From positions 868,001 to 932,000 of the forward strand of contig OZ237750.1 in NCBI GenBank assembly GCA_965178125.1: a stretch of DNA of 64,000 nt, read 5' to 3'. Positions within the stretch are counted from its first letter, which is position 1. Each line of letters starts with the position of its first letter. Both the position numbers and the translations under genes were made by a program. The notes beneath the pieces are model-generated. The model was not told where the DNA came from, did no database searches, and saw nothing but the letters and a program-made list of their open reading frames with translations. Below are positions 3,001 through 64,000 of the stretch, one piece after another. The DNA is from Bilabrum cf. latius. Its lineage: Eukaryota.

Positions 3001-3931
3001 GCCTGCCTTCCGCCGCAGGATGAAGTGGTACTTGGACCATCGGCCCGACGTCATCGGCAGGGAGCACCTGTCGCTCGTCAGAGGCACGTGGCACAAGGAG
3101 AGGCGCGCCTGGCTCGATGGAGAGGCGACTAGGGCAGGAGCAGGGGCAGGAGCAGGGGCAGGGGCAGGAGCAGGGGCAGGCCGCGGTGACGGCGACGTGC
3201 TGCTTAGCCTCGTAGACCCTGATCAGCTGCGGAGGGTGGTGACCCGGGTCATGGACGAGGATCAGTTCCTCAGCGCCTTCGGAGTCAGGTCTGTGTCTAA
3301 GGAACACGAGGCCAGGGAGGGTGCGGGTGCCGGGGCGGGCGGGTTTCGTTTCGAGTTCAACGGGTTCAAGGCGGGCCTGCAGTACACCCCCGCTGAAAGT
3401 GACTCGGCGATGTTCGGGGGGAACAGCAACTGGAGGGGGCCCATCTGGATGCCCATCTGCTACCTGCTTGTGGAGGCCCTGTAGCAGTACGACGCATTCT
3501 TCGGCGATGCCATGCAGGTGCCGCTGCCGGCCACCACGGCCACTGCCACGGCCACTGCCACGGCCGGTGCCCAGGCCACAACGGCGGGTGCCGAGGCCAG
3601 CGGGGTCGGTGAGGGGGGGCCAGGGCCCGCAGTGAGGAGACAGGGGTCTCTCTGGACGGCCGCCTCGGAGATCTCCCAGCGGCTCATCGGCATGTTCCGC
3701 ACCGCGGCGCCGGGGTCACCAGCGGCAAATAGTTCCGTGCTCGGCGCTGGACACAGGCCCGTCTTTGGGGGTCTCAGGGTCCACGGGGACGACCCTGTGC
3801 TCAGAAGGCTAGTGCTCTTCTACGAGTACTTTCACGGCGACCTGGGAGCGGGTCTGGGCGCGTCCCACCAGACCGGTTGGACGGGGCTCGTTGCGAAATT
3901 GATCCAGCAGCAGAGCGCGACACCTAGCTGA
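2..3931 (+). CDS. MGH1-like / GH63-family glycoside hydrolase (yeast YMR196W-like), 5' partial, about 1309 aa in the window, read with TAG=Gln
   Basis: One frame from nt 2 to TGA 3929-3931, interrupted only by TAG at 38, 152, 1568, 1691 and 3482. Family motifs: RRQETDEFY..IQRQALAGMIWSKKFY, WEYPW..WDL, REWMMHPNGSLPAYEYNFQDSNPPVHAW, FLGLDNI, EQADATAWMAFF, FGGNSNWRGPIW, FYEYFHGDLGAGLGASHQTGWTGLVAKLI. Confidence 0.88.
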
Positions 3932-23399: not shown

Positions 23400-28742
<5,343 letters not shown>

Positions 28743-28879
28743 ATTCGGCAGCTTTGGGAGGCGAGCGTTTGCCGCCAAACCGAAACAATGCATTTCATCG
28801 TTTTGCACCTTACAAAAGTGTACGGACAAGCAATCTTCGATTCAAATTTAGAAAGCACTGCTTCGCCCTTGGACTAAAG
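28743..28879. promoter_or_regulatory. Putative bidirectional promoter between the formin and DNAAF4 genes
   Basis: AT-rich gap of 137 bp or less between divergent start codons; no specific motif identified. Confidence 0.45.
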
Positions 28880-31205: not shown

Positions 31206-31560
31206 TTGAGCCATTCATAAAAGTCCCGGGAAATAATTCAAATCAACCACGCAATTTAAGCGGCAGTCGTCGAGACGAACCACGATTCTGACCGTTAGCG
31301 TGTGGTTTCAATTTAATCGGAAATCAACGGACACGAGACCCACCGAATACGTCGTGATTCGGTGTCATTCCGTGAAGCGTTTGCCGACGAAAACATTTAA
31401 TTTCAGTATTTGTAGATCTTGATTCCGGCAAAGTCTCTTCAGACGGATCTGGAAGGGAGCAGCGGTGATAGTTTGGTGCACCGGGGACGTTACCCTCAGT
31501 TGCATTCCATACCTGAATACGGCAGACTTTTTTACCAAACGCTTATCCAGCGCGTGAATC

Positions 31561-40500: not shown

Positions 40501-43500
40501 ATGCAGGTGCAGGTGGTGGTGCACGGGGGCCTCAAGGCCATCCTAGAGGGCGCCAACGCAGAGGACGACGACGACCTGAACCGGCATGCGCTCATGGCTC
40601 TGGGTAACATCAGCTCGAATGAGGAGAATCTGGACGAGCTGCTTGACAGGAACGTGATCGGAACGTGCATCCGCCACGGCCTGCCCGCCACGCAGGTCGA
40701 GCCGGACACAAGGCAGTACGCAGGCTTCGTGCTTGCCAACCTCACAGCCCACTCGTATTTGCTGGAGGAGCTGGGGGAACAAGGAGCCATCGGGTGCCTC
40801 GCGGAGCTGGCCAGCGCCGACGACGGCAACGTGCGGTGCTTGGGCGTGACCGCTCTGCGCCGCATGGCGGACACGGGCCGCAACCGCCGGCGCATCATCA
40901 AGGAGCACGGCGACATGGTCCGCGAGGCCCTGTCTCGGGCCAGTCGGTCGGCTCACGTGGAGACGCAGCGCGAGACGGCTGCCTGCGCCAGCAACCTGGC
41001 TCTGGACGAAGAGAACAAGGCGGACCTGGCGGCGCATGAGGGCCTCCTCAGGGGCATCATTGGGCTGTGCCAGAGCCCCGACCAGGAGGCCGCCCGGTTC
41101 GCGTGCTCTGCGCTGGCCGGCATATCGGAGGATCTGTCGACGCACGACGCGGTGACGAGGTGCGGAGGCGGCTCGTTCATGATCGGCCTCATCCACCACG
41201 AGGGCGTGGATGTGCACAGGGAGGCCTCGCGGGCGCTGGCCAACCTCATGTCATCCTTCGATACGCACCCTGACGTGATTGCTGCCGCGCTGCCCGGCCT
41301 CGTGGTCCTTGCCCAGAGCACCGACGAGGAGTGCCGTAGGCACGCAGCGCTGGCCTACCGCAAGCTGGCCCCCAACCTGGCCTCCCACGAGGGCGTGGCC
41401 AAGACAGGGGGCCTCGCGGCGGTGCTGGCGCTCACCGCGGTTCGAGACCATGGCACCCGTCGGCAGGCCGCCATCGCCCTTAGGGACCTGTGCGCGAACC
41501 CGGACCTCAAGCCGAGGCTGGCGCAGGAGGGCGCCACTGGCTCTCTGTTTGCGCTGGCGAGGGACCCTTCCCCCGAGCTGCAGTGCGCGGCCATGGCTGG
41601 CCTGCGGCACCTGTCAATGGACGACAGGCTCAAGGGAGGGATCGTGCACGAGGGGGCCGCCTCGGTCGTGCTGCGGGTGGCCGACACGAACGTGCCGGAC
41701 ATCCAGGCGCAGGTGTGCGGGCTTCTGGCCAACCTGTCTGAGGACCTCGAGAGCCAGGCATCGCTGGTGGAGGACGGACTCGTGCCCCCGCTGGTGACCC
41801 TGGGCCGCCTGGAGAACGACGAGATCCAGCAGGACGTGGCTCGCGCGCTGGCCAACCTTGCTTCCAACGAGGAGAACCACGTGCCCATGTACCAGCAGGG
41901 CGCCCTGCAGCGCATGTTCTCGCTCACCGACTCGCCCGACGACGTGACCCAGCGGTACGCGGCCATGGGCATCCGGTTCCTCTGCAGCAACGCCATATGC
42001 AGGGTCAGCATCGTGCAGGACGGCGGTAACCTCCGCGCGTTCGTCAACCTCGCGCAGACGCCACTCATCGACTTCCAGCGCACCGCCGCCGTGGCCTTCT
42101 CGAGCTTCTCGCTGGCTCCGGAGAACAGGGCGCTGCTGGTGCGGGAGGGTGGGCTGGCGCAGATACTCGCGTGCCTGCTGTTCCCCGACCTGCAGGTGCA
42201 GCGCGACTGCGCCTTTGCGCTGGCCAACGTGTGCGACTCGGTCGAGCTCCAGGACGCCGTGGTGCGGGAGGGGGCCGTGCCCGTGCTGGTGCAGATCGGG
42301 CTCTCTGACGACGCCAGGGTGCAGCGGGAGGCGGCGAGGTCCTTCAGCTGCCTGTCGCTCACGGACGGACTGAGGAAGCCGCTCGTGGACGCGGGGTCTC
42401 TGGAGACGATCTTCGCCCTGTCGCGGTCCATGGACCTCGCGTGCCAACGGTTTGCGAGCCTGAGCGTCGCAAACCTGGCGGCGGGTGACATCCGGGCCAG
42501 GCTGGTGACGGAGGGTATGACGGGCCCGCTGGTGTTCCTGGCCAGGTTCCCGGACGCGGACGTGCAGAAGTATGCCGCGCTGGCCATGGCGGCCCTGGCC
42601 CTCGGAGACCACGGCGGCAACAAGACGAGGCTGGTGGACGAGGGCGTGGTCAAGCCGCTGGTGGAGCTGTGCAGGTTTCCCAACGTGGAGGTGCAGCGGA
42701 GCGCCACGCTGGCGGTTGCCGCGCTGACGGTCGGTCCCAAGGAGAAGCCCAAGCTGTCGCTCATGGGCGAGGAGGGGCTGCTTCCACTCATCGCGCTCGC
42801 TGCCAGCCAGGACGTGGAGGTGCAGCGCGCCAGCACGTTCGCGGTGGGCTCCCTCGGCGAGTGCAAAGAGGTCCGCGCGAAGCTGGTGGAGCTCGGTGCG
42901 GTCGGGACCATGGTGGAGCAGGGCAGGTTGGCGGGCGACATCGAGACGCGCCGCAACTGCGGGTACTTTCTGGCGGAGATCTCCGAGTCGCCCGAGTTCC
43001 ACGACGAGCTGGTGCACGAGGGCGGGCTCAAGACGCTCGTGTACCACGCCGGCCTCGAGGACGACGAGGTGCAGGAGTACGCCGCCTTTTCCCTCGCGCA
43101 CGTGGCCTCCAACCGGGAGTACCAGGTGCCTGTGGTCAAGGCCGGCGCACTGGAGCCGCTCGTTTCCATGATGAGCGTGCACGCCAAGCCTAGGAACTAC
43201 GCGGGGCTGGCGCTCCTCAAGCTGGCAGACAACTTCGAGTGCCACCTGCCCATTGCAGAGGCGGGCGGCGTGCAGGCGCTGCTCCGTCTGGCTCGGTCCA
43301 AGAGCAGCGACTCGGAGCTGGCCTACAAGGCAGCCCTGTCCGTGGGGCACCTGGCCACCAACGCGGTCAGGCTGCTGCCCAAGGGGGTGCTCGCGCCCAA
43401 GGGGGGCTTCGCGGGGGATGGGAACACCGGGCCCGGGAGCACGGGGGGGGATGCCATGGAGGTTCGCACAGCGGGGCCCAGGCGGAGGGGAGGGGCAGCG

Positions 43501-43710
43501 CGCCGCGAGGAAGACGCAGAGTTTGCTGGGGAGAGGCTGCAGTCCGCCCCTGGCATGGGTGCCATGGGTGGTGCAGGAGATGAAAGTGGCGATGGCGCAG
43601 CGGCCGGCGGTGCGGCGGACCTGCCCGTTGGCTCGATCGTAAGAACACACGCCGAGGAGCGCGCCAAGGATTTCCTCGACCGGGCGACTTCCAGGGTCGG
43701 TGGGAGTTGA
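31561..43710 (+). CDS. Giant armadillo-repeat protein (Vac8-like annotation class), about 4049 aa, intronless
   Basis: Dozens of ARM repeats (GGLxPLxxL...QRxAxxALxNL). Six ORF-track pieces in one frame joined by TAG at 31879, 32944, 35983, 37831, 39733 and 39784; ends at TGA. Confidence 0.9.
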
Positions 43711-43907: not shown

Positions 43908-45307
43908 TCAAGGGCTGTGCTCGAATTGGTTCCAGACTACACTGCCTAGATCCCCGCTGCGACCGCCAGCCAGAGAGATCGTCCTGACAGTATTCTCTGG
44001 CACGAATCCATTGGCGCCGATTGAAGCCATTTCCTCTCTCTCTACGCGCCTGGCAAATAGTACAATTCCTTCCATTTCTCTTGCTGACATGACATCAGCG
44101 CCGTCTTCTACAAAAGAGCTCGAGCTCTAGCTGCTGAGCTGGCTGCTCCGACGCGTGCCAAGAGATGGTCGCTAGGTCTACCCTGGGGCACGAAAGCCCT
44201 ACCCAACGTAAGGAGCCGCGTGATCGAGATGTCCCGATTGAGCATCCTACTTGGCGGAAATGTGGGCCTCCACCGGCGGGCTAACCCGCTCTCTCATTGC
44301 ACCCTGCAGTCCTGCGAAGGGGTCGCCCGACGGCCGTGCGACTCTCACGGAGCCCGTCACGGAGAACTTGCGGTATATCGGGAGGAGAGGGCTGCGGCGG
44401 TGCAGCACATGCTATAGCTGCATGGACTTCGACTGCCTTACGATGCTAGGGGACTCATCTGCGACTCGAAGGGGGCCACCACGGCCCTGCCGCCCGGCAG
44501 AGACGGGGCGTCCTCCCCACCTGGTCATCCCTGTAATGCCACTGGCACTGGCGCTGGCACTGGCAGCCCCCCTCGCAATGGGTACAATTCTCGCTATGAT
44601 ACGATCTGGTCCGTCAAGGTATGGGCTACCAACGATGCCTGCGCCGCTACCGCCACCCTCGCTGCCCTCTGCCAGCGAACCCTATCGGCCAGCGGTCACC
44701 GGCGGACGGTCGGGCGTCTCGCCTCCGCTGCCATTCGAAGCCCCGGCGGCAACCCACGTGTGCTGCCCGGGGCGGAGAGACGGCAATACATGCATGGGTA
44801 GCATGACCAGCTGCTTGCTGTTTGTCTTCGCACGCCTACACTCATCAGCCTCAACGAGCGAAATGCCTGACGAGGACCCGGCAGGGACGGGGATATCTGG
44901 CGTTGCACGAGAAACCCTATCGAGAGCTTCAGGATGCAGCTGATTCAAAGAAGGGCGTCGAGGCATGAACCCAAGAGCTCTTCGTGTGACAAAATCCTTC
45001 GGGCATGCCTTCCTGCGGCTATCGTGCCCGCATGGCTCCGTCCACCTCTTGCCCGGCACGATATCGGCACTAACATCTCGCGCGGAAGTATCGCCGACCC
45101 CTGCTGTGCCCCGCGATTCGGATGTAATCGCCAGATTCTCCGTGGACGAAGATCTGTATGCTGGAAGTTCACCGAGTGGTTTCTGCTAATTGCCTTGATT
45201 TTGCCAACCGAAGGAATCTGCACTATCGCGACCCTCGTCTGGTGGCGACGGTCGCAACCTGGAATTCGCTTGCCTGGCTAAAACACTCTCCGCACACTAC
45301 ACCCCCC
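43908..45307 (-). CDS. Orphan low-complexity protein A (terminal exon; 5' exons unresolved) with the shared C-terminal motif
   Basis: Candidate acceptor ctttcAG at 45308-45310. Frame open to TGA 43908 except TAG at 45297, 45186, 44682, 44412, 44247, 44199, 44178, 44172 and 44127. Ends MEGIVLFARRVEREEMASIGANGFVPE...GDLGSVVWNQFEHSP. Confidence 0.55.
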
Positions 45308-46072
45308 CTGAAAGATAGAAGTAAGTTGAAACATATATTATGGTGGTTGTGCTGGGCATCGTCTGCCGCTTTTCGCGGTAGCAATCCAGTGTTCTTGTAC
45401 TGGCCTGCAGTATGAATCCACAATTCTTGTCGATGTCGCCAGCCACCCGATTGCACAAGCCGTCAAAATATGATGATATTAACCAATATTGCTAGAATAC
45501 TTATCTCACTTGCATCTGGCCCGTTTAGCTGTCGAGGTGCACTACCTGGCTGCGATGTATGGTTGAGAGCCGCTACTTGGTGCTCCTCATCGCTAGCAAT
45601 CATCGAAATTTGAGCCAATCGCGCAATAGATAATGATTATGACTCACGTTTACTGAACGTTGAATGCCACATTGATCAGTCGCTTGTGGTAGCATCTATC
45701 CGACATGCTCCTAGTGGTCGGTGGGAGGCACACGCAGCTGGCCTGTCTGCTGCTGTGAATCGGACTGTCCTTCAGACGCTGGTCCGTCAAGCTTAGAAAG
45801 TGGGACGACTGGGTGTATACAAGCGCGGCACGATGTGCAACTTCCCATCTGTTTGGCTTGGAAAGTTGCCTGCTTAGTGCACGGCAGCGCCGCAGCGGGA
45901 CGCGTGTACTGAAGGCGAAGTTCGCTGCAGTGCCGAACTTGAATGCAAAAAATGAAGATGATCGTCGATCTAGGTATAACCTATAAACTTTGTGCGGTGC
46001 ACGATGACCTGATGCAACATGCAATAATCAAGACAAGACGAAGCCTATCACAGCTACCGGTCAACATGGACA

Positions 46073-48484
46073 TTACCCGATAGTGCGCTCGTCCTCGATC
46101 TGGCTCCACGCCACGCTCTCGACGTCCCCGCCGATGCCCCCTAGCAGGCTCGACAGCCTGCCTCTCCGCTCCGGTGCGAAGCCCCCGGCCCCAACAGAGG
46201 CCCTCTCCTCCCTCTCCACCCTTTTGGCGTACTCCAGGATGCTGGCCAGTCCCTCGGGAGAGATGCCCTCCGTGCGCGTGTATATGTGCGAGCCGCCGTC
46301 ACTGGGCTGACTGCTGCGCCGGGCGTGCACGTGAAGAGGGTGCGGCCTCCTGGAGCGGGGCGTGTGCACCCCAGGAAACTCATCTGAGTACGCTCTAGGC
46401 TCTTGCCTCGGCCCACTGGCACTGATTGCGCCGCGAATGACCCCCCGGGGAGATGGAGCGTCCTCGGTGTGGTGCCTGCCAGCAGCCTGAGAGCCCTGCA
46501 GCTTGCCAGTCACTGAGATGGTCCTAGGAACGCTAGGACCGGCCATTCCTAGCAGTTGGCCTACCTGCACTGTGTTTGAGTGCCTAATCACTCCGGATGG
46601 GGCTCGCTCTGCTGCTGGGCCTGCGCCCGCTAACCTCCTTCTTCTTCCATCAGCAAGCGGGGCATGGGGTCCGCCGCGACGCATCGAGCCCGATCTGGCG
46701 CCACTCGCTGCGAGTCTATGTACTACGGAGTGTTTCATCATGACGTGGTCTCTGAGTGGCAGCGGCAGCGGCGGCACGATCGGACGCGCCTGACCTTGAA
46801 CTGGCGATGCCGCCTGCCCTTGAATTGGCGATGCCGCCGCGTGCTGGCGCAGGGTGTGTGCCAGCTCACCGCTTCGTTTGCTGGTGGTGCGGGTGAGTGA
46901 TTTCTAGACCGGCTGGAGATGGATAGAGCCAGCCGTGGCCTCTCCTTCCGCCCTCTACCCGTGCTCTTCATGCTCCTGCTGCTCCTGACCCCCCTCGCTC
47001 TGCTCGTTGCTGGAGCTGTTCCGATCGAGGTCCATGTGGTCAGCCACTATGGATCGATGCGTCGAGTGGTGCTGCTCCGGCTGCATGTCTGCGTACAACT
47101 CACCTGCCCACCGGGATTGGTCCCCGCGTCTCCCTATACCGAACCACTTGGTGCGTCCATGTCGCACCCTCGCGACCTGAACCCCCCGCACGTGCCCACC
47201 CCTGGGGTCTCGCCGGGCTGGGCTCAGCAACCCGCCGGTTGGAGAGTCGTCGTCGTGGTAGTCCATCCGTGAGATAGAATCAGCATCGCTGAGGCGTGCA
47301 CGAGATCGAACCGCTTGCCCGTCCGGACCAGAGCCCCCGCCCTTCAAGTTGCCCCCAGTTCGCGCACCATCATTGCTTCCCACTGCAGGCTAGGCGGCGA
47401 TGTGCTGCTCCAACTCCGGCTTTGGCACTGGTCCCACCTCTAGACTCATTGCGACAAATCCAGGAGCATCCATGGCAGAGCCATTCACGTCGGACTGGGA
47501 GGAGAGCATCATCAATCCCTTCAAGTTGCCCGCGCTGCCACTGGCGTTCGAGGTGGACAGGGGGGCAAGCTGCATGGACCTCTGGGAGACCTTGGCCCCC
47601 AGCGGTCCGCTGCTCGTGCAGTCCAGAGCCGCAGCAGCAGAAGTAGCCGAGCTGCCCTATGCTACTGCACAAACTCCGCCCATGGGCCCTGTAACTTTCA
47701 AGCGCTGCAGCTGTCTGCGCTTGTCAAGGTTGGGCACTGCCCCACCGGTGCATCCATTTGCTGGAGCACATTCTGGGATTCGCTGAACTGTTTCATGGCT
47801 CTTGGCCTGCAATTTTGCAGTATAATCCGGTGCTGCAGCTTGCTGCCCCCCTGGCTCTTGTTCTACGGCAGCATGCCAACCGCAAGTTGATGGAGTTGCA
47901 CGCGAGCAGTCCGCTCCGGTAGATTGCCCTGTCGGCGACACGTTGGCATTTCTATGCACGCAGGGTTGTGATAATGATCCGACTTTTGAACCTGCTGGAA
48001 CTTGGGTGCTATTGTAGAAGCATTGGGAAGTTGCAAGGGGTTGCCTGGCGGTGATGCGGAACGCACCTCAGGCTCATCAGGCATATCAAGCGACAGTAGA
48101 AGCCCCATTGGATGCAATAATTGCTCTCACTGGAGTTCACACTGTGATTTTTATCGTGGCATTGTAAAGCACTGTTATTTTGTGCCTGCAAATATGGTGA
48201 AGTGGGAGGCAGGTTGATTCTCAGAGAAAAATGCAACTCAACCAATCATTAAGACATGTAGTGGCAGCGCATCTCAGCTGCAAAACGGTATTTTCAAGGC
48301 TCACATCGGGGTAACAGTCTTCGCTTGCAATTCCTTGGCCTGCGCCGTGGGCACGTGCACCACATTCCGAGCCTCCAACGCCCAACTTGTACCCGGAGTT
48401 CGGTACGCCGCCGTCGTGCAGAATGTCAGGCATGGAAGGCTGCACTTGGCTACTTTGCGATTCATCCCCTAAACAATTTCCCAT
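46073..48484 (-). CDS. Orphan low-complexity protein B with the shared C-terminal motif; possible MGNC- lipidated N-terminus; 5' splicing unresolved
   Basis: Frame open from about 48067 to TAA 46073 except TAG at 47657, 47390, 46955 and 46904. Candidate first exon MGNCLGDES (ATG 48484) ends at a GTGAGC donor (48304). I could not close all splice phases by hand. Confidence 0.55.
46095..46294. repeat. 200-bp direct repeat, copy 1 (copy 2 at 48661-48860)
   Basis: Manual comparison shows 2 mismatches in 200 nt. Confidence 0.93.
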
Positions 48485-48632
48485 TTCGACTTCTGCCAAC
48501 ACGAAACAAGAAGCAAGTTGTGTGGGCTGCGGTGGCTAGCGGTGGTTGCGACCGCCCGTGAGGTTGATGATCGCAACCGGCAATCGATGGGTTGGTCGCA
48601 GAGAGTTGAATACGGTTACCAGTTTGCCACAA

Positions 48633-50190
48633 TCACATCGACCCAGAATCTACACCCTCTTCGATCTGGCTCCACGCCACACTCTCGACGTCCCCTCCGA
48701 TGCCCCCTAGCAGGCTCGACAGCCTGCCTCTCCGCTCCGGTGCGAAGCCCCCGGCCCCAACAGAGGCCCTCTCCTCCCTCTCCACCCTTTTGGCGTACTC
48801 CAGGATGCTGGCCAGTCCCTCGGGAGAGATGCCCTCCGTGCGCGTGTATATGTGCGAGCCCGACCCGCTCCCACTCCTGCTGCGCGTGTCCCAGCTCTCA
48901 ACGCGGCGTTCCCGCCGCACCGTTTGTCCCCCCGGGGCCCGCCCCTGCTGCGCGTGGGGGACCGGTGACTCCTTCTATCGCTGGACGGCTCTTCGGGCCC
49001 ACATCCGCCTCTCCAGGCTCGCTCCTGCGGGAGAACCCCTCGATCGAGTAGCCCCAGCCACAGACACAGACACGGCGTGTCTCACGGCAGAGGCACTGAC
49101 CCCCAGCGCGGCCTGGTGCTGGTGCAGCTGAACACTACCTGACTGCCCCCGATACGGACTAGCACCAGCTGGCATTTGGGTCAACACCATGGGTGCAGCG
49201 GGCAACGGCAATGGCAGCGCCCTCCTGCAGCCGAGGTCCCCTGTGCCGCTGGTGTCCTCACTAGATCCACTATCAGGTCCACCTGCATACTCCGAGTCAT
49301 TCCCACCTTCTTCTTCTGCTTCCTCTTCATCGTCCTCCTCATCCTGACGACCAAAACTGCAGCCAGCCTGTGCACTGCCGTTGCGCTGCATGCTACTAGT
49401 GCGGGTCTAATCAGCACTCTGCGGCCCTGCAGCACCAGTGGAGCGCGAGCTGCTCGTTCTGCTGCCCCTGCTGCTGCCCCTGCTGCTGCCTTCGCGATCC
49501 TGATGATCCTGCTCTTGTTCCTGCTCGTGCTCGTGCTCCTGGATGGGGTGCCATTTCGATGACAGCCGCTGGTTCCTTGCTGCAACTGTATCACTAGTGG
49601 GCTCTGGCGCCTCCTTGTGCTCACGCGCATTCGTCACATCGAAGGCCGTTTCGTCGCAAAGGCTCCTCGAGATTCGGCTCCCATAGTTACCTGAGCACCC
49701 AGTCAGCTTAGAGCTGCCTGTCATGCCCCTTGCAATGTCCCCCCCTTGGCTCAGCCCCGGCTCCAGGCTCTGCCAGTGCTGCAGGCTGCCAGTCTGGCGG
49801 TGCTGGGGCGTGCTCTGCATGCTGCGGGTGGCCGACATGCCCGCGCTCCCGCTAGCAGCCTATGACTCGCTGGAGGAGAAGTGTCTGGCACAACCCGCTG
49901 TTTCGGGGCCACATCCACCAGGGGATAGAAACATCTGCCGCGTTAAGCTGCCAAGAGAGCGCTTGCTTGAGGCAGATGAGCCCCGAGAACTCATCTGGAA
50001 GCTGCCGCGCTCTGGCCTCGAATGGCGGGCCTCTTGAGCAGCTTCTAAACTTCGATGATGCGGTTGCGCCCTACGAATTTGCGCCGACGTGCTTGGCCCG
50101 GGTCGAAATTCGCCTTCAAGTTGCCCAGTCCTTTGATCGAAGCAGAAGCTCACTGCAGTTCCGTGGGTTTGCGGACATTCAGACAGGGTC
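48633..50190 (-). CDS. Orphan low-complexity protein C (terminal exon; 5' exons unresolved) with the shared C-terminal motif
   Basis: ORFs 49860, 49407, 48975 and 48633 share one frame and are joined by TAG at 49860, 49407 and 48975; TGA at 48633. Candidate acceptor ttgcAG at 50191-50193. Confidence 0.58.
48661..48860. repeat. 200-bp direct repeat, copy 2 (copy 1 at 46095-46294)
   Basis: Manual comparison shows 2 mismatches in 200 nt. Confidence 0.93.
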
Positions 50191-50736
50191 CTGCAATAGA
50201 CTTCCTTGCAGTGCGCATTCCATCAATACCACCAACTTACCATGCTACTTGGAGCAATCAGCTCCTGGGTTGCAATCACCTGTTGATTTAGACTGCAAAT
50301 ACGGAGGAACGCGGTATCAATCACGGGCCAGTCAAAAAATAGAAGGAGAAGTATAAGTGAAGCATAGACTAAGCTCAACCTTGCCGAATTCAAATCGACT
50401 GAAATTATACATTTGATACCAATAATTACCTAAATTCGCAGTAGATATTTAGGAAACAAGGTTTTATCCTTGCCTTACCGTACGAACAATCCCACGCTAC
50501 TATTCTTGTTCCTTTGGAACGTAAACTCCCATGTCAAGACGACCATCTTCGGTGTGTACTTGATGATGTACTGCGCTCGCACCACATGGCGAATTTCCCA
50601 TCGAGCTTAGGCCAAAAATGCCGCACTTCACCTCGGCACAATTATATTCCGAGTTGCTTTATCGAACGTTCGCTATTTCGCTCCTTTTTTTCCGAAGCCG
50701 TTGTTGAAGCAGTGTACATGGCAATCCAGTGCAGCG

Positions 50737-53025: not shown

Positions 53026-53122
53026 CTGCATGCCTGGATCCCATGTGTGCTGAGCTGGGCGAGCGCCTGCAATGTGTTGAGTGGTGAGTATATACTATGG
53101 ATCTGCTGAGTCCGTCCGCCAG

Positions 53123-55051
53123 TCAGTCTTCGCTACCTGCCTCCTCAAGCGGACAGTGCAACCACTGCAGCTCCAGCGGCCACGCAGCATTGACCCCGCT
53201 ACTACACCGGGGGTGGGCCAGCACCCACTCCAGCTCTGCCTGGCCCCAGCTGACGAGGCCGCCGATCCGGAGCCCTGCGTGCAACTGCTCGTTGCCTAGC
53301 CCAAAGCTGCCGTCAGCATTCACTGTCCCACTCATCCCGAGCGAGATTCCGAGCCCGAGACCCCCGCCCAAGGCCTCAGCACCTCTTGATGCTGGTTGAG
53401 TGCCTCCCCGTGCCTCGTCTCGCGCACCACCGGGTGGCGCCCTGTCAGCCGTGCTGACCCTAACCCTGAACCTGCTCTGCAGCAGCCAAAGGAAAGGATC
53501 TGCAGCGCTACAAGCCTGCGTCAGCTGTATCTCCCACACGGTGGCTCGATCTCCTGCTTTATCAGCATCCCCTTGCCTCTGCAGGCCTAGGATGGCCCAC
53601 ACCACCTGCAGCTAGTCCGGCCGCAGCACTGCCTCCAGCCGCTCGATCATTTTGGGTGTCAGCTGCGAGGGAATGTCCACCCGGAACACCACCTCGAGAT
53701 CGCCCATGGGCCGCTCGTCTCCGGCAGATGCATTGAACTGCGGCGGAGGCGGGCGGTTCGCTGCCTTGGCCGCAGCCGCCTCCATCTCCTGCTTCTGCTG
53801 CAGGGCTTCTGGTGACAGAGGCAGCCCGCCCCTCGGTACCGTGACGATCTGCCCGCTGAACGTGATGCCAGCCCTCCGAATAGGCACGCGCGTGCCGTTC
53901 AGTAGCGTGAGCGAGCGGTTGAAGCCGCTCAGAGCTTCGACCAGCCCGATCGTCGCTTGGAACTGCAGGTTGGCAGGCGTGTGCGGGTTCCACCCGAACC
54001 TGTCGTGCGGCAGCCGGTGCACGACCACGATCGCATCCCCGTTCTTCATGCCCAGTTCCTGGTGGCCTTGGCCTTCCAACGGGTGCGTGTATCCGTGAAG
54101 CGCCCCTGCTGGGACCACGAACGGCAGCGACGCCTCCTGTTCCACCGTGCCCGTCCCGTGGCAGTGCTCGCACGGCTCTGACCACACGAATCCCCGCGCC
54201 CCGCAGCGGGGGCACGGCCGCCTCTCTGCATGCTCGTAGGGCTTCTTCGGGCGCTCTGTGGTCACGCAGGAGCGCGAGCCAGCGGCACGGTCTTCTTCTT
54301 CTTCCTCCTCTGCCCCCCCCTCTTCCTCTGCGTGGCCCGGATGGGAGTGGGCTTCCTTGCAGCTGTGGGCGGCTTGCTGGCTGAACACCGAGTCCTCCAC
54401 CTTGCGGTCTTGCATCAGGTACCAGGCAAGCCCGCTTCCCCCGCAGCGAGAACACACGTGGACATGGTCGGGAGACAGGGCCCCGAGGCCGCTGCATTCA
54501 GCGCAAAGCTGCTGCCGCTTGAACTGCACTTGACGCATTTGCGGCTGCTACAGCTCTTCCAAGGTCAGCTCCAGCACAGCTAGCACCGATCCGGCTTTGT
54601 CAGCCTTCGGTGGAGTGTGGTACAGCTCGAATGCGCCGAACGAGAGTCGTGCCACCATGCTGAAATGTTGCAAGCCCAAGTCAGGCACGACTGATCCGGA
54701 CTGCGATCCCGGTCCTGCCGACTGCGTGCTACCACCGCCCGTCCAAGCCGAATGCCCCATTTCATCGTAACTCGCCTTCTTATCTGCATCGCCCAGAACC
54801 TCGTACGCGGCCTGGATTCGGAGGAACTAGTCGGCCAATTCCTGGCTTGAATTGCTGCCCAGCTTGTCCGGATGTAACTCGAGCATGAGCTTGCGATACG
54901 CTCGCTTGATAGCCCTAGCATTGGACTTTTCTGGAATTCCTAGTTCTTGGTAGAACGTCAACGCCCCAGCGAACGATACGAGCAAAGCCAATGCCAACGC
55001 TACCGAGAAAACCAGGGCCCAACGAACCGCGGGCATCTTGCGCACAGGCAT
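53123..55051 (-). CDS. ER-targeted type I DnaJ/Hsp40 (Scj1/ERdj3-like), up to about 642 aa
   Basis: Signal peptide, J domain with HPD (LHPDK...AYEVLGD..K...YD), four CxxCxGxG-type zinc motifs (CAECSGLG, CSRCGGSG, CPRCGARG, CEHCHGTG) and DnaJ C-terminal domain. TAG at 54827, 54548 and 53612; TGA at 53123. Confidence 0.85.
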
Positions 55052-55311
55052 GATGCGCACTGGGCAGCCAAGACAATATACGATGGTTATTATCTGGAGA
55101 TTATTATCATTTTTGGGGATCCCTTGGTCGCGTAGTGTAACCAAGTGATTACGTCCGCAGACTGGTTGGCTCCGAGTTTCGTCCGGGCGCCTGCCCAGCC
55201 TGTGTGTGGAAAGGTGTGTGTGCGGTGGTGTTGGGCACACCAGTAACAAGAGGCTACAGATTGAATAGAATTGAATCTTCCGTGGCTACAGATGCGCAAA
55301 GCCCCGCCCCG

Positions 55312-58300
55312 TCACTCGGGCAGGGACAGCAGCAGCGCCGCCGACCGGCACACCCAGTGCTTGGGCTCGAAGGCCGTCGGCAGCCGCACGCTCACCACAA
55401 AGTTCGTGCTGATGCCAGTCGTGCTCAGGGTCCCCGCCCTCTCCGGTGTCTTGTACACGGGGCACTCATACCGGAACAGCCCATCCCTCGCGGGGATGGG
55501 GGCCTCCACGGAGGACGCCCTAATGTCCTCCGCAGCCTCCTCGGCCTCGACGATGCCAGCAGCCGCAGCGGCGCGAGCCGCCTGCACGTCCATCGCAGAC
55601 ATCCTTCCGCCGGCCCCGCCGTGGCCAACCAAGCCAGCCCCGCCGCGAGGAGTCACCCCAGGCACGGCCCCAGCGAAAAACACCCTCCGGCCTCCACCGC
55701 GACGAGTGCTGGCGCCGCCCGCGATGCCTCCCGCCTTGCCGGTGGCTGCACCCCCTCCCGCGGTGTTGATGATGTTGGCTGCGGCCGTGCTGTCTGGAAC
55801 CGCCAGTCCCGCCGCGCGCGCGGTGCGTAGGGCGCGGATGTTGCGGGTCGTCTGAGGCGGTTTGTTGGGTGGTTTGGGCCTGCCCGCCTCCCCGCCGGCG
55901 CCCGGCGTCTCCCCTCCCGTCCCGTCCAAATTCAAGCCGGCCGCCTCCGCCATCTCGTCCAGCTCGGCTTCTCTGCGCTTGGCCTCCCCCGCTTCGTCGT
56001 GGTCGTCCTCCTGCCCCGGCAAGGCGGCCATCCCCGACGTCCCGGCCTTGGGGATGCCGTCGCCGGCACCCTGCGGCAGGCCCGCGGGGTCTACCACGCG
56101 GGGGATGAAGAAGACAGCTGGCATCTTCGAGTAGAGCTGCCCGGGGCGCGCCTCCACGAGACAAGACTCCGCCTCGTTCCACGCGGCTCCTCCGTCCAGG
56201 TACAGCCCAGTGACGATGACGCCGTCGCCCCCCACTGCATCCGGGTCCTCGCTCTCGTCGTCCTCCGCCTCGAAGTCGTCGCTGTCCTCCGAGTCGGACT
56301 CGATCTCGAGGGGCTCGCTGCCCCGCTGCTCGTCGGCCTGCTGCGCTTCCAGCACCTCCTTCTTGCGCAGCACGCGGAACTTGAACGAGAAGTCCAGCGT
56401 GTTGATCGGCAGCATGTACCGCCGCGCGTGCCTCTGCAGCACCGCCGTCAAGAAGCCCTGGGGGAAGAAGAGCGCGCCCAGCTGGAACACCCTCGGCTGG
56501 CCGCGGGTCAGCCACAGCCGCAGGAAATGCACGCGAGACTGCAGGTCCGCGAGCCACGAGGCAAGCGGCTTGAGGGACGGATAACCCACATCCTTCCACT
56601 GCTGAGGCACAGCGTTGTTGCTCACGCACTCCAGCGCGCTCTCGAGCTCCGGTGACAGAGCCACCATGCCGCGCAGCGCTCCCTTCAGCTGAGCAAGCAC
56701 CTCGCGGACGGCCCCAAGCAGCGTGTTGTACTTGGTCAGCTCCTGCAACAGCACCACGGTCAGCGAGCCGTAGAGGCCACGCCTGCTCCTCCGCAGCACC
56801 ACGGGAGAGGCCTCGTCCAGGTCGAGGTCCTCGGGGAGCCTCTCTTCAAGGGAGACCAGGGCCTGCCACAGCACGGGGTCCGCGTCAGGCGGGGCCTCGT
56901 TCGGGTTCTCCTTCTTCGACCTCGCGCGGGAGGACCCCCCTCGAGGACTCGACGGGCCGCCGGCCCCGCTCCGTGCCCCACCTCGTGTACCGGACGCAGC
57001 CGCCGACGCGTGCTCGTCCGCGTCGGCAGCCGCCTGCCCGATGAACCCCATGGCCAGCGTGGTCTCGCAGAGATAACCGGCCTCACGGGTGCGGAACCGA
57101 ACAGCGGCATTCGCGTGCAGGCCAAACACCGAAGGCTCATCGTCGTCCGGCAGGCCCGCGAGATAGGCCCGCAGAACCCTGTGGTCGTCCTTACCCTCCA
57201 CAGACTGCACCCTCACGCCAGGGTGCCCCTCCGGGTCCGTGGAGCTCCGGCGAATGGCCCCTGTCGCCGCCGCAGCGTCCATCCCGTCATCGTCGTCATG
57301 CTCACCGCCGTGACTGCCATCCTCCTCGTCGCCAAACCCGAGGCCCACGGCACCGGAGAGCCCCGCAATCTCGCTGCTGCTCTTGCGCCTCTCTCGTGCC
57401 GCAGAGAAAACCTCCGCAGCCTTCGCCTTGGAAACCACCTCCCGGTCGTGCGCTGCAGGCGTGAATTCGTAGTCCTCCTCGCACACGGCATCCTCCCGCA
57501 TCACGTATCCCAGCAGCGTCAGGAGCAGCCGCCTATCCCAGTCGTCCGTCACCCGACCGCCGTACGAGATGTGCCCGATGACGTGCTTGGAGGCATCGAA
57601 GGGTACGCGGTCCACCACCTTGCTCAGGGCAGCCATGCCCGCCCTCTCCATCCGCTCGCGGGCCAGCATGGAGGGTGGATACCCCTCTGCCTGCTGCAGC
57701 AGCGACCGCAGCACCTCCAGGCCAGTCTCTAGATCTGAGTCGTTGAACTCGTACCGGATGTTCCACCCGAGAGGCCCGAACTTGCGCCGCTCCTACACCA
57801 CAGCGTGGAAGAAGCACAGCCCAAAAGCCAGTCGCTTCCAGACCTTCTCCAGCGGCAGCACATCGTGCGGAGGAAGCGCGGGCTTGATGTCCTGATCATC
57901 CATAGACACGCTCTCGCGGCGGGCCCGACGCGCCTTGCCACTCGGTGTGGGGGCCAGCTGCTGGGCAGGTGTCGCTGCAGAGACGTCGTCGTCCGCCCCG
58001 GCTCCGCTGGCTGCGGCATCGTCCCCGCCTTCCTGCGTTGAGACTCGGGGTCGCTTGGGAGCCGCGGGCCCTCCCTTGGGAATGGGCGCGAGGGTGCACT
58101 CCTCGAGCGCGTCAGGGGTGAGCATGAGCTGGAGGGAGCGCTGTAGATTGGCGCGCAGGCCCTTGGGCGGCTCGTTGGTCATCTTTACTGAGTTCTGCAG
58201 CACGCTCGTTGGGAAGTATGGCACTGGGAAGGAGGTGAGGAACACCCTGTAGCGAGGGTGCAAGGTGGCAGCCTTGCGCCGCTGCGAGGTCAGGATGCCC

Positions 58301-61300
58301 TCCAGACGGGGCAACCACGACTTGGCCAAGTGGCAGTTCTGCAGCAGCACCCAGTTCCCATCGGTGGCAGACTTTTGCAGCAGCACCTCAGCGCTGTGCC
58401 CCTGTCCCGCACCCAGCGATACGACGTGCGTGCGCGATGACATGCCCTCTGCCTCCGCGAACGCCAGCAGCCGCGAGGTGGGGTCAGCTCCCTGCGAGAG
58501 GATGAACACGCAAGGCGTCACGTTGTCTGTGTCCTTAAACACAGCAGCCATCGAGGTGGCGGGCGGGTTGACGAACTGCGGGCCCAGCACAGCACGCACC
58601 AGCATGGAAAGCGTGCGGAGTGCCCGGCTGGGCTGCAGCGCCCGAATTATCACCAGGCGACAGACCTCGTCCAGTCGAGTCGACCACCCGTCGGGTAGCA
58701 CGGGGACGGACGAGGCGTCGTGCTCGACGGAGGCGCGCCCGTTCGCACCCCTTCCTGCAGAATCTGCCCCTCGAATGCCTTCGAAGGGGTTGCCCCGCTC
58801 CGCCCACGCGTTCCACTCCAAAAATTTCTCGCGCATGCTAAGACTGAGGCCCTGCAGGCCTCGCAACCTGGCCCCATCGCTGGGCAGTTCCGTCATGACC
58901 TTGTGCCCGGCAGAGGCCTCTAGGGCAGCGATCATGTCCCAGGCTGCGTGTGACACCATCGCGCGCCCGTGCCTGCGCTTGCTCGCGCTGACGGGAGTGG
59001 CAGCAGCCGAGGGGGCGGACGATGCCTCTGGAGATCGAGGAGACGCGGGTGCCGATGCCGCCGCCCCGGTGGCCTTCGGACTGGATGGCTTGGGGCTTTC
59101 TGTCTATGCTTCCACGTCAGGAGACAGGCCAGGCCGCAGCGGGATCTTGCTGCGGTCCACCACGGCACCGCCGCGCAGCAGCAGCGCGGTCTGCTCCGGC
59201 CTGGCCCTCTTCGAGTCCAGCAGCAGCCGCAGCGAGGCGGCGAGAGCAAGCAGAATCTTGTCGCGCTCGAAAAGCCCCCTGCAGATGTTGAAGAAGACGG
59301 CCTCCGTCACGGCGCGCTGCAGCGCAGAGCACCTCTCCGCAGCGAGCGCCGCTCCCGCGCCGAAGTGCGGTACCGACGGGTCCCGCAGCGCCTTGCCGAA
59401 CAGGTTCACGAAAGACGGCAGGCTCACCTGGTACATGGGATCCACGGAGGCCATGTCCGAGGCACAGAAGAACAGAAGGGAGCCTCTGCGCGCCACCACC
59501 CTGTACCTGTCCCTGGCTTCGGCGATGTCCTGCTGGATCTGCTTGGAGTCCATCAACCTATCCCGGATGTACTTGCTCACGGTCTTGGCCTGGCTGAGGC
59601 TGTCAATGAGGACTTCGTCGTCCAGGATATCGTCGCCGGCCTCGCTGATCTGCTTGAGCACCGTGTCTTCCAGCTGCTGCCGCTCCCTTGAATCGCTGGC
59701 CAGTCGCTCCAGCACCTCACCCCTCCGCTTCTCCACCTCGGGCCGCTCGTGCTCCACAGTGATGGCCAGCAGCTGCTCCTCCAGCCCGCTCACGGTGACG
59801 CCAAAGTCGACCACGTTCACGGTGGTGCTCATCTCCGGCAGCAAGTGCGGGTTGGAGTGCCGAGTGGTGATGTACAGCCTGAAGTTGCCACTCACCAGCA
59901 CGTCTGTCTCACCCACTCGGATCGTGGCAGGGCCCATGGCTTCCCCGCCATCGTCGCCGCCACCACCGCCGGCGAGTGCGGCGGCCAGTCCCAGCGCGGC
60001 GCGCTCGCTGCCGCCCGTTGCGCCTACACTGGCCGCCGGCCGCGCCAGCACCGGTCCGAGGACGGAAGGCAGTGCAGTGCTGGCGTCCTCCAGCAAGAGC
60101 GCGCTACCGTGCTCCATGCACTGCTTGAGCACCTCGCCAAGGGCATTCTCTGCCGCCTCCACCGCAGATCGACCGCCCCCGCCACCTCGCCCTCCTCTCT
60201 TCTTCCTGGACCCTTTGCCCTTACCCGACTTGCCGCTCACCCCAGCTGCCACAACTCCACCCCTAGTTGAAGCCCCGGCTCCGCTCCCGTGGCCGCCAGC
60301 GCCCTTGCCTGAGTCCTCGGCCAGCGACACCACGACTACGTCTTGCCTGCCATCGCCGGCGGGCACCGACTCCATGTTGCGGATCCACCGCACGGCCTGT
60401 CCCTGCGGGTCGATGAGATAGGGCCAGCGAGAGATGCCCAGCGCCACAGAGTCGCCGGCCACTCCGCCAGACTGCTGCCCGAGCCCACCGGTGAGGCTGA
60501 TCCCAGAGATGCCAGGGTCTAGCGGGGGCAGCAGGTGCTGGAAAGATGGGGTGAAGTTCACCGCAGTGCCTGCCGCCTCAAGCGCCGCCAGCTGAGAGGC
60601 AGGCAGCGTGGCCACGATCTCTCTAGCTTCCTGGCTCTACAGCATCTCGGCCGCCGTTAGATTCTCCGCATCACCTTGGATGGCGCCTGCAGCACGCAAG
60701 CGATCCTCGGTCGCCCGGAAGGCCGCGCCGCTGACAACCCCGCGAGGCAAGCGCGGCAGCATGAGTACCTCATCATCCCCTGCAGCGGGGCCGATCAAGC
60801 CAGCTCCGGGAAGAGGGGGACCCAGCGACTGTGACGCCATCGCGATGATGCCGGAATCCGAGGACACGCTGTCGGCAGGCAGACCCTGCACGCCCCATGA
60901 CCGTATCTGCACGTCGGAGGCCAGCACGGTTCGCAGAGAGAAGTCTGCGCGCACTGGCAGCCCCCTTGCTCGCACTGCACTCAGCAATCCTCGCAGCATG
61001 GACGTCCGGCGGGCGCCGTCTAGTGGGCCGGCATAGACAATCATGGCAGTGGCCACGAGCATGTCTCCCACGGAAAGGTCGATTTCCCTCTTCATGACCT
61101 CGACTTCGTTGCGCCAGCGCTCGCCCTCCGATGAGATGCCCTCGGTCAGGCGCCCGGCACGCTGCAGCTTCTGCTTGATGGAAGCCAGCTCTGCTTGCAG
61201 CAGCTGCTTCTTCTCCTCGGCCTAGTCCACCTTGCGCCTGAGCGCCGCCACCGCGTCCTCCACCTCCCTCAGCTTGCCCTGCTTTTCGTCCAAGGCGCGG

Positions 61301-64000
61301 TTGGCGGCCCGGAGCTGCTCATTCAGCACGCGAACTTTCTCCTGCTTCGGCTTAACGTCGGCCGCGACTCGAGTGTAGTTCTCGATGGCGCGAGCCCACA
61401 TGCACAGACTCAGCGCGGCAGTTGACACTGTGCGCACCCTCTCCGGGTCGATGCGCCCGGCTGCAATCGCCTGTCTCACGATGCGCAACCGGCCGGCTGG
61501 GATATTGTCACGGTCATACGACCTGCGGAAACACAACGGCAGAGTGTATACGCAAGCATAAAGTAGGAGAACAGACGCATGCAGTGCTTTGTTGCGTACA
61601 ATAGCTTCATGAACTCACTCAAGACCTTTCAGGAATCCCTGTTTGCCGAGTACCTTCTTAGCAGTGTCCCAGCCCTGTGGTTCCCCTAGCAGCGCGTTCA
61701 CGGCATCCATCACGTTTCGCACGCCCTCTGGCGGCGAAGGGAATGATCGCAGCTCCACGATGTCCTTTGGCTCCAGAGCGTTGAGCGCCTACACGGCGGC
61801 CTGCGATAGAAATGAGATGGGCTCAGCAGTCGATATCAACATGGGTCAAGTTCGATGCGCGCAATCAAGGGCTCGGGCAAAGTAGGCTACGCTGCGAACG
61901 TCACACCGCATACACTTGGCAATCGGTGGGTCTATCGCCATGTCTATCTTACCTCAAGCTCTGGTAGCGCCTGATCCAGCTACCGCTGCGCCTCCTGCTG
62001 CACCATGGCAACCTGCTCGGCCTTGCCACGGACCACCTGCTCCTCGCGTGACACGATGGCGCGCTTCTCGGCAACGGACTCACTCTACTTTGCAAGTTGA
62101 GCTAGAAGCTCCTGCGTAGACCGCGCATTCTCCGCTAAAATGGGCTGTGTCTCGGTCATCTGGTCGCGCAGACGTACCACGGTCTCCTCCACGTTCTCCA
62201 GGCGGTGAATACCAAGAGTCAGGCGGTAGATAGCCGCGCGCTGCTCGCTACAGCGGTGGCTCAGCCTCGCAGCAAACATCTGCACCAGGTCAAGGAAGGC
62301 ACGCGGCGTCACGTACACACGCCGCTGCCGCCCGCCTTTCGCGGCGTCCCCACCGCCGGCGGTCTCACCGCGCAGACTCGCAGCCAGGTCAGCCGCTCGC
62401 GTGTGAATAGCCACGCAGGCGTCCACGAGCACGTGCCGCAGCCTCTCGTTGATTTCACTGCTAGATCGGAGGCCCTGTGCGAAGGGGGGCAGCAGCTCGG
62501 GTCGCTACAGCGTGTACTCGTCGTCCTCGAGCATCTCGCTGCTACCCATGTCCAGGCCCGTGGCGGCCGCGCTGCCAGCACCGAGCCCGGCAGCGAGCTC
62601 GCCCTTGCCCGCGTCTCGACTTTGGGCCTCTGGCTGCGCCCCGGGAATGTGAGGAGCAGGAATCGTAGAAGGGAGGCACACGAGGCGCAGCAGCCTCGTC
62701 CCGACCGACGACAGGGCTGCGCGCGGCCATTGCTCGAACCAGTCGATGCTGCAGCAGCTGAGCAGCGACGGGAAGGTCCTCAGTCGCCTCCTGAGCGTGG
62801 CGCCCACGGGAGAGGTGGCCAACAATATGTGAAGGTTGGCCCGCAGCCTCTCCACAAACGTAGCGTAGAGGTCGTTCTTCGCCGCTGCTTTGGCAAAGGC
62901 ATCCTCCTCGTCCTCATCGTCGTCGTCATCACCAATGTCATCGACCTTGCCTGCTGCGGCAGCCGCCTCCTCCTCAGCCTGCACCTTTTCCTCCAGCAGC
63001 TGCTACTCGTCCGCCAGCACCTGCCCCATGCGGCCGTAGATCATCTCCAGCTCATCCTGCTCCCACAGCCCGGGCACCTCGCCCTGATTCAGCACGCAGT
63101 TCACATCCTCAAAGAGCGCCTCCTCGCCCACCATGGCGTCAGGCAGCAGCATAACCGTCTTCTGCTTCTCCACCCCGGCCTTGAGCATCGCTGTCTTGAG
63201 CGACTCGCGGAAGGTTTCCACCGTGTACGGCACGCCACCTTCTCCTTGCACCACATCGCAACGAGCAATGTATGCGGCGAGGCGAGCCAGCGACTGCTTC
63301 CCGCTGCCTGCCACGCCCACGAGCATGGCATGCCCGCGCGGCTGCGACAGCACGCGGCACAGCCGCACCACGTGCTCGATGGCCCCCCGGAAAAACACCA
63401 ACTGCATGGGACTGCGCGGGTAGTCCAGGTTGTGATCCTGCAGGTAGGCATCCAGCAGTCGACCGAGCCGGCTGGGGTCCGGACACTCCTCGTACCTCAT
63501 CTGTGACTCGTCTTCACCCGGAGTGAAGAAAGACCCGAACACGAGAGGACCGATGGTCGCGCGCTGCGTCTCACCGGGCCTTCCCTTCCCGTGCGGTAGC
63601 TGCACGGAGCTCATCCCCGACACGGACGTGGCGGCGATGGATGCGCCATCTCCCATCGACCTCGGCTCAGCCTCCGAGCCTCCGTCGCCGGCACCCGGCT
63701 GGTCTCCAAGTACACCGAGTGCCTCGGGGCCGAAGAGATCCTCCCAAGTCCACGGGAGTCGGAAATACCGATGTAGCGTCTGGACGAGGGTCGTGGTGAA
63801 CCACGTACGGTCTTTCTCGCTGGCGAGCCTGTCGTGGAACAGCCTCATGCACTCGTGCATCCACAGTCGGGCCTGCACGGGGCCAGTCCCGCACTTTTCC
63901 GGCTGCCCCATCAAGATGCCCTTGAACACACCAGCCACGTCACGCAGGTTGAACATATAGTGTGCCTTGCTGGGCGTAGGCTTCATCTCTGCCGTTACCC
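55312..64000 (-). CDS. Axonemal dynein heavy chain, 3' part (AAA3 lid, AAA4, stalk/MTBD, AAA5, AAA6, C-terminal domain); 5' partial; introns 61801-61952 and 61523-61618
   Basis: PTPSKAHYMFNLRD, AAA4 P-loop GVAGSGKQS, FPSLLSCCSIDWF..WP, RWPYLIDPQGQA, FILSQGADP, GNWVLLQNCHL, TNEPPKGLRANL, YGGRVTDDWDRR, YECPVYKT..R.G.LSTTG.STNFV. TAG at 63003, 62505, 62085, 61980, 61789, 61222, 60637, 59104 and 57793; ends at TGA. Confidence 0.95.
61523..61618 (-). other. Spliceosomal intron (96 nt) in the dynein MTBD
   Basis: GTGAGT donor and tccgcAG acceptor. The phase-2 join gives FLKGLE-SYDRDNI. Confidence 0.85.
61801..61952 (-). other. Spliceosomal intron (152 nt) in the dynein stalk region
   Basis: GTAAGA donor and atcgcAG acceptor. 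The phase-0 join gives ALPELE-AAV*ALNAL. Confidence 0.85.

Follow-up and report, generated by a model that had tools for sequence, protein, structure and literature searches.

The dynein gene and its in-frame TAG codons

The window is a stretch of 64,000 nucleotides from Bilabrum cf. latius (assembly GCA_965178125.1, contig OZ237750.1, positions 868,001 to 932,000 of the forward strand). It is 63.5% G+C and intron-poor. At its right-hand end, on the minus strand, lies a dynein heavy chain gene with TAG triplets in its reading frame, one of which (57793) falls in a conserved motif. The comparisons described here make it very probable that TAG specifies glutamine (Gln) in this genome. With TAG treated as a sense codon, a frame of 2100 codons runs from stop to stop at 55312-61614 on the minus strand, and a second frame, 720 codons long, lies open upstream of it at 61836-63998 on the same strand, where the window edge ends it. 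The Pfam domains in the two frames follow the order AAA_lid_1, AAA_8, MT, AAA_9, Dynein_heavy (D6), AAA_lid_11, and Dynein_C, and the motor-domain set of AAA4, stalk (MT), AAA5, AAA6 P-loop region, AAA lid, and C-terminal domain is present in order. The best matches among solved structures are the single-headed inner-arm dyneins DNAH12, DNAH6, DNAH7, and DNAH3, and the top database names are "dynein heavy chain 6, axonemal". Judged by these domains and matches, the gene is an axonemal dynein heavy chain of the single-headed inner-arm type (DNAH6/DNAH12-like), with its motor part in the window. The gene extends past the window end (64000), beyond which its N-terminal tail, linker, and AAA1-AAA3 would lie.

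A close relative was found by a search with 221 residues around 57793. The search returned a metagenome protein of 267 residues, P0121, which is 90% identical and has Q at the 57793 site. It is encoded on a contig, L001, of which 14,320 nt were examined. L001 is syntenic with the window. Its dynein is likewise followed by a DnaJ gene, the two introns sit at matching positions, and the dynein frame stays open further upstream. The features of the dynein gene in the window are as follows.

55312 to 55314, minus strand: TGA stop of the dynein, directly after the conserved C-terminus ...AALLLSLPE; L001 has the same peptide, then TGA
55315 to 61522, minus strand: last dynein exon in the window, with the stalk end, AAA5, AAA6, lid, and C-terminal domain (frames, Pfam, L001 alignment)
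57730 to 57825, minus strand: conserved AAA-lid motif stretch (Pfam PF18198 match; aligns to solved axonemal dyneins)
57793 to 57795, minus strand: the in-frame TAG under study (sequence read; Q in the homolog column; CAG in L001; Q in P0121)
61523 to 61618, minus strand: intron, GT..AG, 96 nt (DNA reading; a contig of sequencing run X6 departs from the genome at ~61520)
61619 to 61800, minus strand: small dynein exon, 182 nt, with an in-frame TAG at 61789-61791 (AAV-TAG-ALNALEPKD)
61801 to 61952, minus strand: intron, GT..AG, 152 nt (same place in L001)
61953 to 63998, minus strand: upstream dynein exon, ended by the window edge, with AAA3 lid, AAA4, and stalk CC1 (Pfam, frames)

The last exon has in-frame TAGs at 61222, 60637, 59104, and 57793. 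Within 57730-57825 the minus strand reads TGC TTC TTC CAC GCT GTG GTG TAG GAG CGG CGC AAG TTC GGG CCT CTC GGG TGG AAC. The Pfam match to PF18198 (AAA_lid_11) covers residues 1259-1402 of the 2100-codon frame with an E value of 7.3e-40, and the TAG is residue 1274. The sequence-only reading that drew attention to this site had placed the TAG at 57793-57795 in these codons, within the AAA lid of an axonemal dynein. The sequence and its translation agree with that description in every detail, and the Pfam match and the solved axonemal dyneins confirm the context.

The dynein also carries large insertions rich in Ala, Gly, Ser, and Asp, at 57830-58150 and in other stretches of the minus strand. 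They have no counterpart in distant homologs and are partly common to L001. One of them sits between the NEPPKGLRANL motif and a further motif.

Conservation of the TAG sites in distant homologs

The TAG at 57793 occupies a position that is nearly always Gln in other dyneins. The test set consisted of 120 full-length dynein homologs, which are 33-50% identical locally, and 122 shorter dynein fragments. All 120 full-length homologs aligned at the site, and the column contains Q 111, L 5, H 3, and M 1. The shorter fragments have Q 115 and L 7. Among the alignments listed for solved dynein structures, of which 71 were matched, five of five have Q. The expectation of the sequence-only reading that this column would be dominated by Gln in dynein orthologs was therefore borne out.

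The other TAG sites of the gene show a different picture, and the earlier description of 57793 as decisive was overstated for one column. The TAGs at 62085 and 61980, both in the stalk, face columns of acidic residues: D 89, E 21, Q 5, A 1, K 1, and one gap at 62085 (n=118), and D 100, S 3, E 3, and A 1 at 61980 (n=107). The column at 61222 is variable, with D 27, A 26, E 21, S 15, K 7, R 5, T 5, N 4, Q 4, H 3, I 2, and one gap (n=120). No distant dynein homolog matched the segments flanking the TAGs at 62505, 60637, and 59104, which lie in lineage-specific insertions. Similarly, 107 of 116 alignments end before the TAG at 63003, also a lineage-specific insertion.

These columns raise the question of whether TAG could specify some other residue, with Glu, Leu, Tyr, Lys, Trp, and pyrrolysine among the candidates. 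Given the Asp/Glu columns at 62085 and 61980, the single column at 57793 does not decide the matter, and on column data alone Glu is a live rival. Leu also occurs at the 57793 column, in 5 of 120 and 7 of 122 sequences. In addition, codes with UAG as Leu and UAG as Glu are reported from other protists (PMC5304391, PMC10553269). Inferring a reassigned codon from a single column can mislead.

Comparison with a close relative

The DNA of L001 and the window is about 70-74% identical and the protein 81-84%. For the last dynein exon there are 2035 aligned pairs with 81% identity. The L001 dynein contains in-frame TAGs too, about 29-30 in 4223 codons and mostly at positions other than those of the window; these counts were made per exon and include one intronic TAG and ~25 codons of intron. 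Of the dynein Gln codons, about 18% are TAG in L001 vs about 8% in the window.

Each set of TAGs can be read against the sense codons of the other species. In the dynein, eight of the nine window TAGs face Q in L001, and all eight of these codons are CAG. They include the TAG at 57793, whose flanks are identical at 20 of 20 positions, the TAG of the small exon at 61789-61791, where L001 has Q (AAVQALNSLEPKD), and the four TAGs of the upstream exon at 63003, 62505, 62085, and 61980, with flanks identical at 19/20, 14/18, 19/20, and 18/19 positions. The ninth faces S in a poorly aligned stretch of low complexity, with flanks identical at 7 of 11 positions. The adjoining DnaJ gene has TAGs as well, including one in its J domain.

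54827 to 54829, minus strand: in-frame TAG in the J domain of the adjoining DnaJ gene (ELAD-TAG-FLRIQAAYEVL); L001 has Q (ELVDQFLRIQAAYQVL)

One window DnaJ TAG faces Q in L001 and the other faces L in a variable stretch, so that over both genes Q is found opposite 9 of the 11 aligned window TAGs. In the reverse direction, 14 of 17 L001 dynein TAGs face Q in the window (12 CAG and 2 CAA), two face Lys (AAG), and one faces Ala (GCC). The single L001 DnaJ TAG faces Gln, giving Gln at 15 of 18 aligned sites. Pooled over both directions, 24 of the 29 aligned TAG positions face Gln (21 CAG, 2 CAA, and 1 with the codon unresolved).

The proportion of TAGs facing Gln is what a Gln codon would give. 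Gln is conserved at 0.87 of the well-aligned Gln positions between the window and L001, and 24 of 29 matches this rate. A log-likelihood was calculated over 23 well-aligned TAG sites from the substitution pattern observed between the window and L001 orthologs. Gln scores -16.6, ahead of His (-86.5), Lys (-88.3), and Glu (-97.3).

This comparison makes it very unlikely that TAG stands for an amino acid other than Gln. L001 has CAG at both stalk sites with Asp/Glu columns. None of the 29 positions faces Glu, Tyr, or Trp, and one faces Leu, in the variable DnaJ stretch. The log-likelihood gap from Gln to the best alternative is ~70 units. Glu, which had been raised by the Asp/Glu columns, was dropped as a meaning of TAG after the CAG matches in L001 and the likelihood calculation. 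The CAG codons of L001 at 57793, 62085, and 61980, together with the 24 of 29 positions facing Gln, settle the choice in favor of Gln. The preference of the sequence-only reading for Gln over Leu, Tyr, Glu, Trp, and pyrrolysine thus holds, with the relative as its support.

The lineage has Gln at two dynein stalk positions that are otherwise acidic (62085-62087 and 61980-61982), in the segments LAKQSESVAEK and EAQRQLDQALPEL.

The effect of TAG is also visible in public protein collections. The database proteins P0121, P0241, and P0242 share the end ...HDREVVL, and the next codon in L001 is an in-frame TAG (10802). Gene calling with the standard code cuts proteins at TAG, which explains these ends and suggests that the proteins of this lineage are fragmented in public collections.

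Stop codon usage

In the dynein frame TAG behaves like a sense triplet while TAA and TGA are excluded. The dynein coding sequence within the window has 2813 codons including the stop, with 9 in-frame TAGs, no internal TAA, and no internal TGA. The other two frames of the same stretch have 10 and 10 TAG, 4 and 5 TAA, and 57 and 42 TGA. TAG is therefore about as frequent in the coding frame as outside it, while TAA and TGA occur only outside. In both species the dynein terminates with TGA behind the same conserved C-terminus.

The same pattern extends over the window. The 16 long frames contain 88 TAGs in 19,740 codons, and every long open frame has TAG. When the frames are delimited with TAG as sense, 14 of the 16 end in TGA and two end in TAA.

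The absence of TAA distinguishes this code from the common one in which UAA and UAG (UAR) both specify Gln. Across the dyneins of both species there are 39 TAGs and no TAA in 2813 + 4223 codons. Were TAA also a Gln codon, the CAA/CAG ratio of 0.19 would predict ~7.4 of them, and the probability of seeing none is about 6e-4 for this one gene in two species. By this count the code is a UAG-only variant rather than UAR = Gln.

A gene at the other end of the window provides a further conserved TAG site.

3482 to 3484, plus strand: in-frame TAG in a GH63/MGH1-like glucosidase (LLVEAL-TAG-QYDAFFGD; Pfam PF22422 and PF03200)

The column at this site contains Q 108, R 9, G 1, L 1, and W 1 in 120 homologs. 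The sequence-only reading had described this position as often Gln in the family, and the count agrees.

The DnaJ gene and the possibility of a dual meaning

TAG could have a dual meaning in this genome, being read as Gln inside genes through a suppressor or near-cognate tRNA-Gln and acting as a context-dependent stop for some genes. The DnaJ gene is where such a code might be seen. Its TAG at 53612-53614 falls where the DnaJ_C domain ends (...LEAVLRPD). The next ~80 codons lose the pattern of low G+C at second and high G+C at third codon positions, and their codon-usage score is -0.12 in frame vs -0.16 out of frame. Codes with a context-dependent choice between stop and sense are reported from other protists (PMC4967479).

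Other observations point the other way. Taken whole, the 162-codon tail scores best in frame (-0.03 vs -0.27 and -0.47), in the same order as the domain part. Its second half is frame-specific, with 0.06 vs -0.36 and -0.47. The length differences listed for the DnaJ tail in sequencing run X11 sum to a multiple of three (+6 +1 +1 +1 = +9). A coding score was also obtained for the sequence that follows the final TAG in the CS-TPR gene. In addition, no gene of the window must end at TAG, and the dynein, whose true C-terminus is known from homologs, ends with TGA in both species. A dual meaning is therefore distinctly unlikely. Codon-usage scores in 40-codon windows around each TAG were too noisy in low-complexity proteins to tell which TAGs precede coding sequence.

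The DnaJ frame extends 162 codons beyond the TAG at 53612 (53123-53614, minus strand), and this tail is rich in Gly and Trp. Its coding signal is ambiguous, and the tail may be translated, untranslated, or interrupted by an intron.

Presence in sequencing runs and related organisms

The possibility that the TAGs are untranslated was also considered. They could belong to a pseudogene, be assembly errors, or be edited to CAG in the mRNA. In favor of this, TAG has so far been read from DNA and from inferred proteins, and 57793 is not among the differences listed for sequencing runs. No difference at a TAG site between the runs and the window is found among the 40 of 934 differences listed, and no listed piece of run X6 covers 57793.

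The state of the gene argues strongly that it is functional as read. Neither TAA nor TGA nor a frameshift interrupts its 2813 codons. Protein identity to L001 (81-84%) is much higher than DNA identity (~72%), there are no frameshifts, and the TAGs of the relative lie elsewhere, which together suggest purifying selection in both species. TAG occurs in every long open frame of the window, not in the dynein alone.

The sequencing runs argue against assembly errors. At least half of the sampled words of the stretch are present in seven runs from three studies. Run X6 belongs to a different study than the runs with the best coverage; its contigs are letter-identical over 59935-61520 and span the TAGs at 61222 and 60637. 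At ~61520, where the last exon starts, one X6 contig departs from the genome and continues for another 211 letters, which makes it look like a spliced transcript. Overall it is extremely unlikely that the TAGs are untranslated.

Related organisms are present in other public data. Runs X9, X11, and X12, which are labeled as three other organisms, have contigs about 90-95% identical in DNA over most of 53100-64000. The lineage thus has several sequenced members.

Other genes in the window

The GH63/MGH1-like glucosidase gene is located at 2-3931 on the plus strand and has a long low-complexity N-terminal extension. Its best matches have 52-59% identity over the conserved third. Few of them carry source names, and all of these are bacterial, for example glucosidases from metagenome-assembled genomes of Methylomirabilota, Anaerolineae, Acidobacteria, and cyanobacteria. 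A bacterial origin of the gene is possible, judging from these matches.

Several other frames have unusual compositions. One unbroken frame of 4050 codons at 31558-43710 on the plus strand consists almost entirely of armadillo/HEAT repeats (Pfam Arm, E 1.5e-188) and has 6 in-frame TAGs. Three adjoining frames on the minus strand (43908-45500, 46073-48067, and 48633-50222) have no Pfam match. They have a common C-terminal block of ~60 residues (...EGISPEGLASILEYAKRVEREERASVGAGGFAPE...SVAWSQIE), which is near-identical in two of them. From this block, the three frames of 43908-50222 look like a small tandem gene family without an assigned function. A formin (FH2) frame at 23400-28841 on the minus strand contains ~200 residues of GTGMGTG-type repeats at translated residues ~580-790, a microsatellite-like coding repeat.

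Meaning of TAG and proposed mechanism

The distribution of TAG in conserved open genes, its exchange with CAG and CAA between two species, and the exclusion of TAA and TGA lead to the reading of UAG as Gln. On these comparisons of codons, UAG is very probably an ordinary Gln sense codon in the nuclear genes of this organism, with TAA and TGA kept as stops, and 57793 would be the conserved Gln of the AAA6 lid.

Several points weigh against this reading. Five of the 29 aligned TAG positions face residues other than Gln (K, K, A, S, and L). The columns at 62085 and 61980 are acidic in distant homologs, and these two sites fit Gln solely through the CAG codons of the close relative. Evidence at the RNA level is tied to run X6; that this run is RNA is a guess of the search tool, with the contig break at the exon boundary as its sole support, and none of the runs containing the stretch is recorded as RNA. 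ARAGORN found no tRNA gene in the window or in contigs L001 and L002, and eRF1 is not among the genes of the window. Rfam likewise gave no match in the window at gathering thresholds. An earlier description of the code of this organism may exist.

By analogy with a known case of the same kind (PMC5304391), the change could be explained by two components. UAG would be decoded by a tRNA-Gln with the anticodon CUA, which would pair with UAG and not with UAA. This tRNA would probably have arisen from a duplicated tRNA-Gln(CUG). The release factor eRF1 would have lost or weakened its recognition of UAG while keeping that of UAA and UGA. Such a change would be expected in its motifs for stop-codon recognition (GTS, NIKS, and YxCxxxF); for Iotanema, T32G is reported (PMC5304391).

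A variant of the dual meaning at the level of the clade was also weighed. The clade comprises the window organism, the ~90-95% DNA-identical relatives in three other runs, and the ~72% DNA-identical metagenome relative, and it is probably related to stramenopiles. A context-dependent code in which UAG alone serves as both stop and sense in this clade, for example with the DnaJ gene ending at 53612-53614, is distinctly unlikely.

The position of the lineage was examined with a FastTree analysis of the single dynein gene, with 45 rows. The window and L001 are sister to P0004, a full-length European Nucleotide Archive (ENA) protein (4995 aa as source-called), within a group of Cladosiphon (a brown alga) and an oomycete paralog. 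The window and L001 are on a long branch, and the tool warns that a long-branch join may be false. A stramenopile affinity is thus a weakly supported lead from one gene and not a result. A literature search, mostly of open full text and with supplements excluded, found neither a nuclear code change described for stramenopiles nor a GC-rich flagellate with UAG = Gln, and no account of the code of this lineage.

The history and the practical consequences of the code can be outlined. The change is common to a relative with ~72% DNA identity, and the TAG share of Gln codons differs between the two. This suggests that the change is old and that its spread through genes can be traced. For annotation, this genome calls for a code that differs from the standard one in TAG alone, read as Gln.

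Comparison with known genetic codes

Reassignment of UAG alone with UAA retained as a stop was long deemed blocked. According to PMC5304391 and PMC11687900, the nuclear lineages with a documented case are few and comprise Iotanema, a rhizarian, and some phyllopharyngean ciliates. The window apparently contributes another case of UAG-only reassignment to Gln, independent of these, in a GC-rich, intron-poor flagellate.

The common codes with Gln at stop codons are of the UAR type (NCBI table 6), which PMC5304391 lists for many ciliates, hexamitid diplomonads, some ulvophyte green algae, oxymonads, and an aphelid. As in the window, a stop has become a Gln codon, presumably by mutation of a tRNA-Gln. 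UAA specifies Gln as well in those codes, whereas here there is no TAA in ~7,000 dynein codons and two long frames end in TAA. The rhizarian exLh and a clade of phyllopharyngean ciliates have UAG alone reassigned, but to Leu (PMC5304391, PMC11687900). Leu faces TAG at 1 of 29 aligned sites here, and at the 57793 column it is found in 5/120 and 7/122 sequences.

Other systems use TAG for Gln as the window does. Code 15 of crAss-like phages is one of them, but according to PMC9523058 it is a recoding of late genes by phages in bacteria. The window in contrast is from a eukaryotic nuclear genome with spliceosomal introns and an axonemal dynein. The phyllopharyngean ciliates Hartmannula sinica and Trochilia petrani have UAG alone as Gln, which like the present case was found by mining public genome data (PMC11687900). 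They are described there as preferring UAA as the stop. Introns in the window are of the ordinary GT-AG kind (96-152 nt), and its genes are very long and GC-rich. In the tree the window dynein is placed apart from the one ciliate sequence.

A close parallel is Iotanema spirale (Metamonada, Fornicata), where Gln is specified by UAG but not by UAA, which remains a stop together with UGA (PMC5304391). There too the meaning was derived from conserved positions and a phylogeny-informed comparison. The two organisms belong to unrelated lineages. UAA is the primary stop in Iotanema as reported in that paper, while TGA is the commonest here (14/16) and the genome is GC-rich (63.5%). The paper also argues from tRNA and eRF1, neither of which was found in the window. 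Overall the pattern seen in these genes very probably matches the NCBI table 15 or Iotanema type, with UAG as Gln and UAA and UGA as stops.

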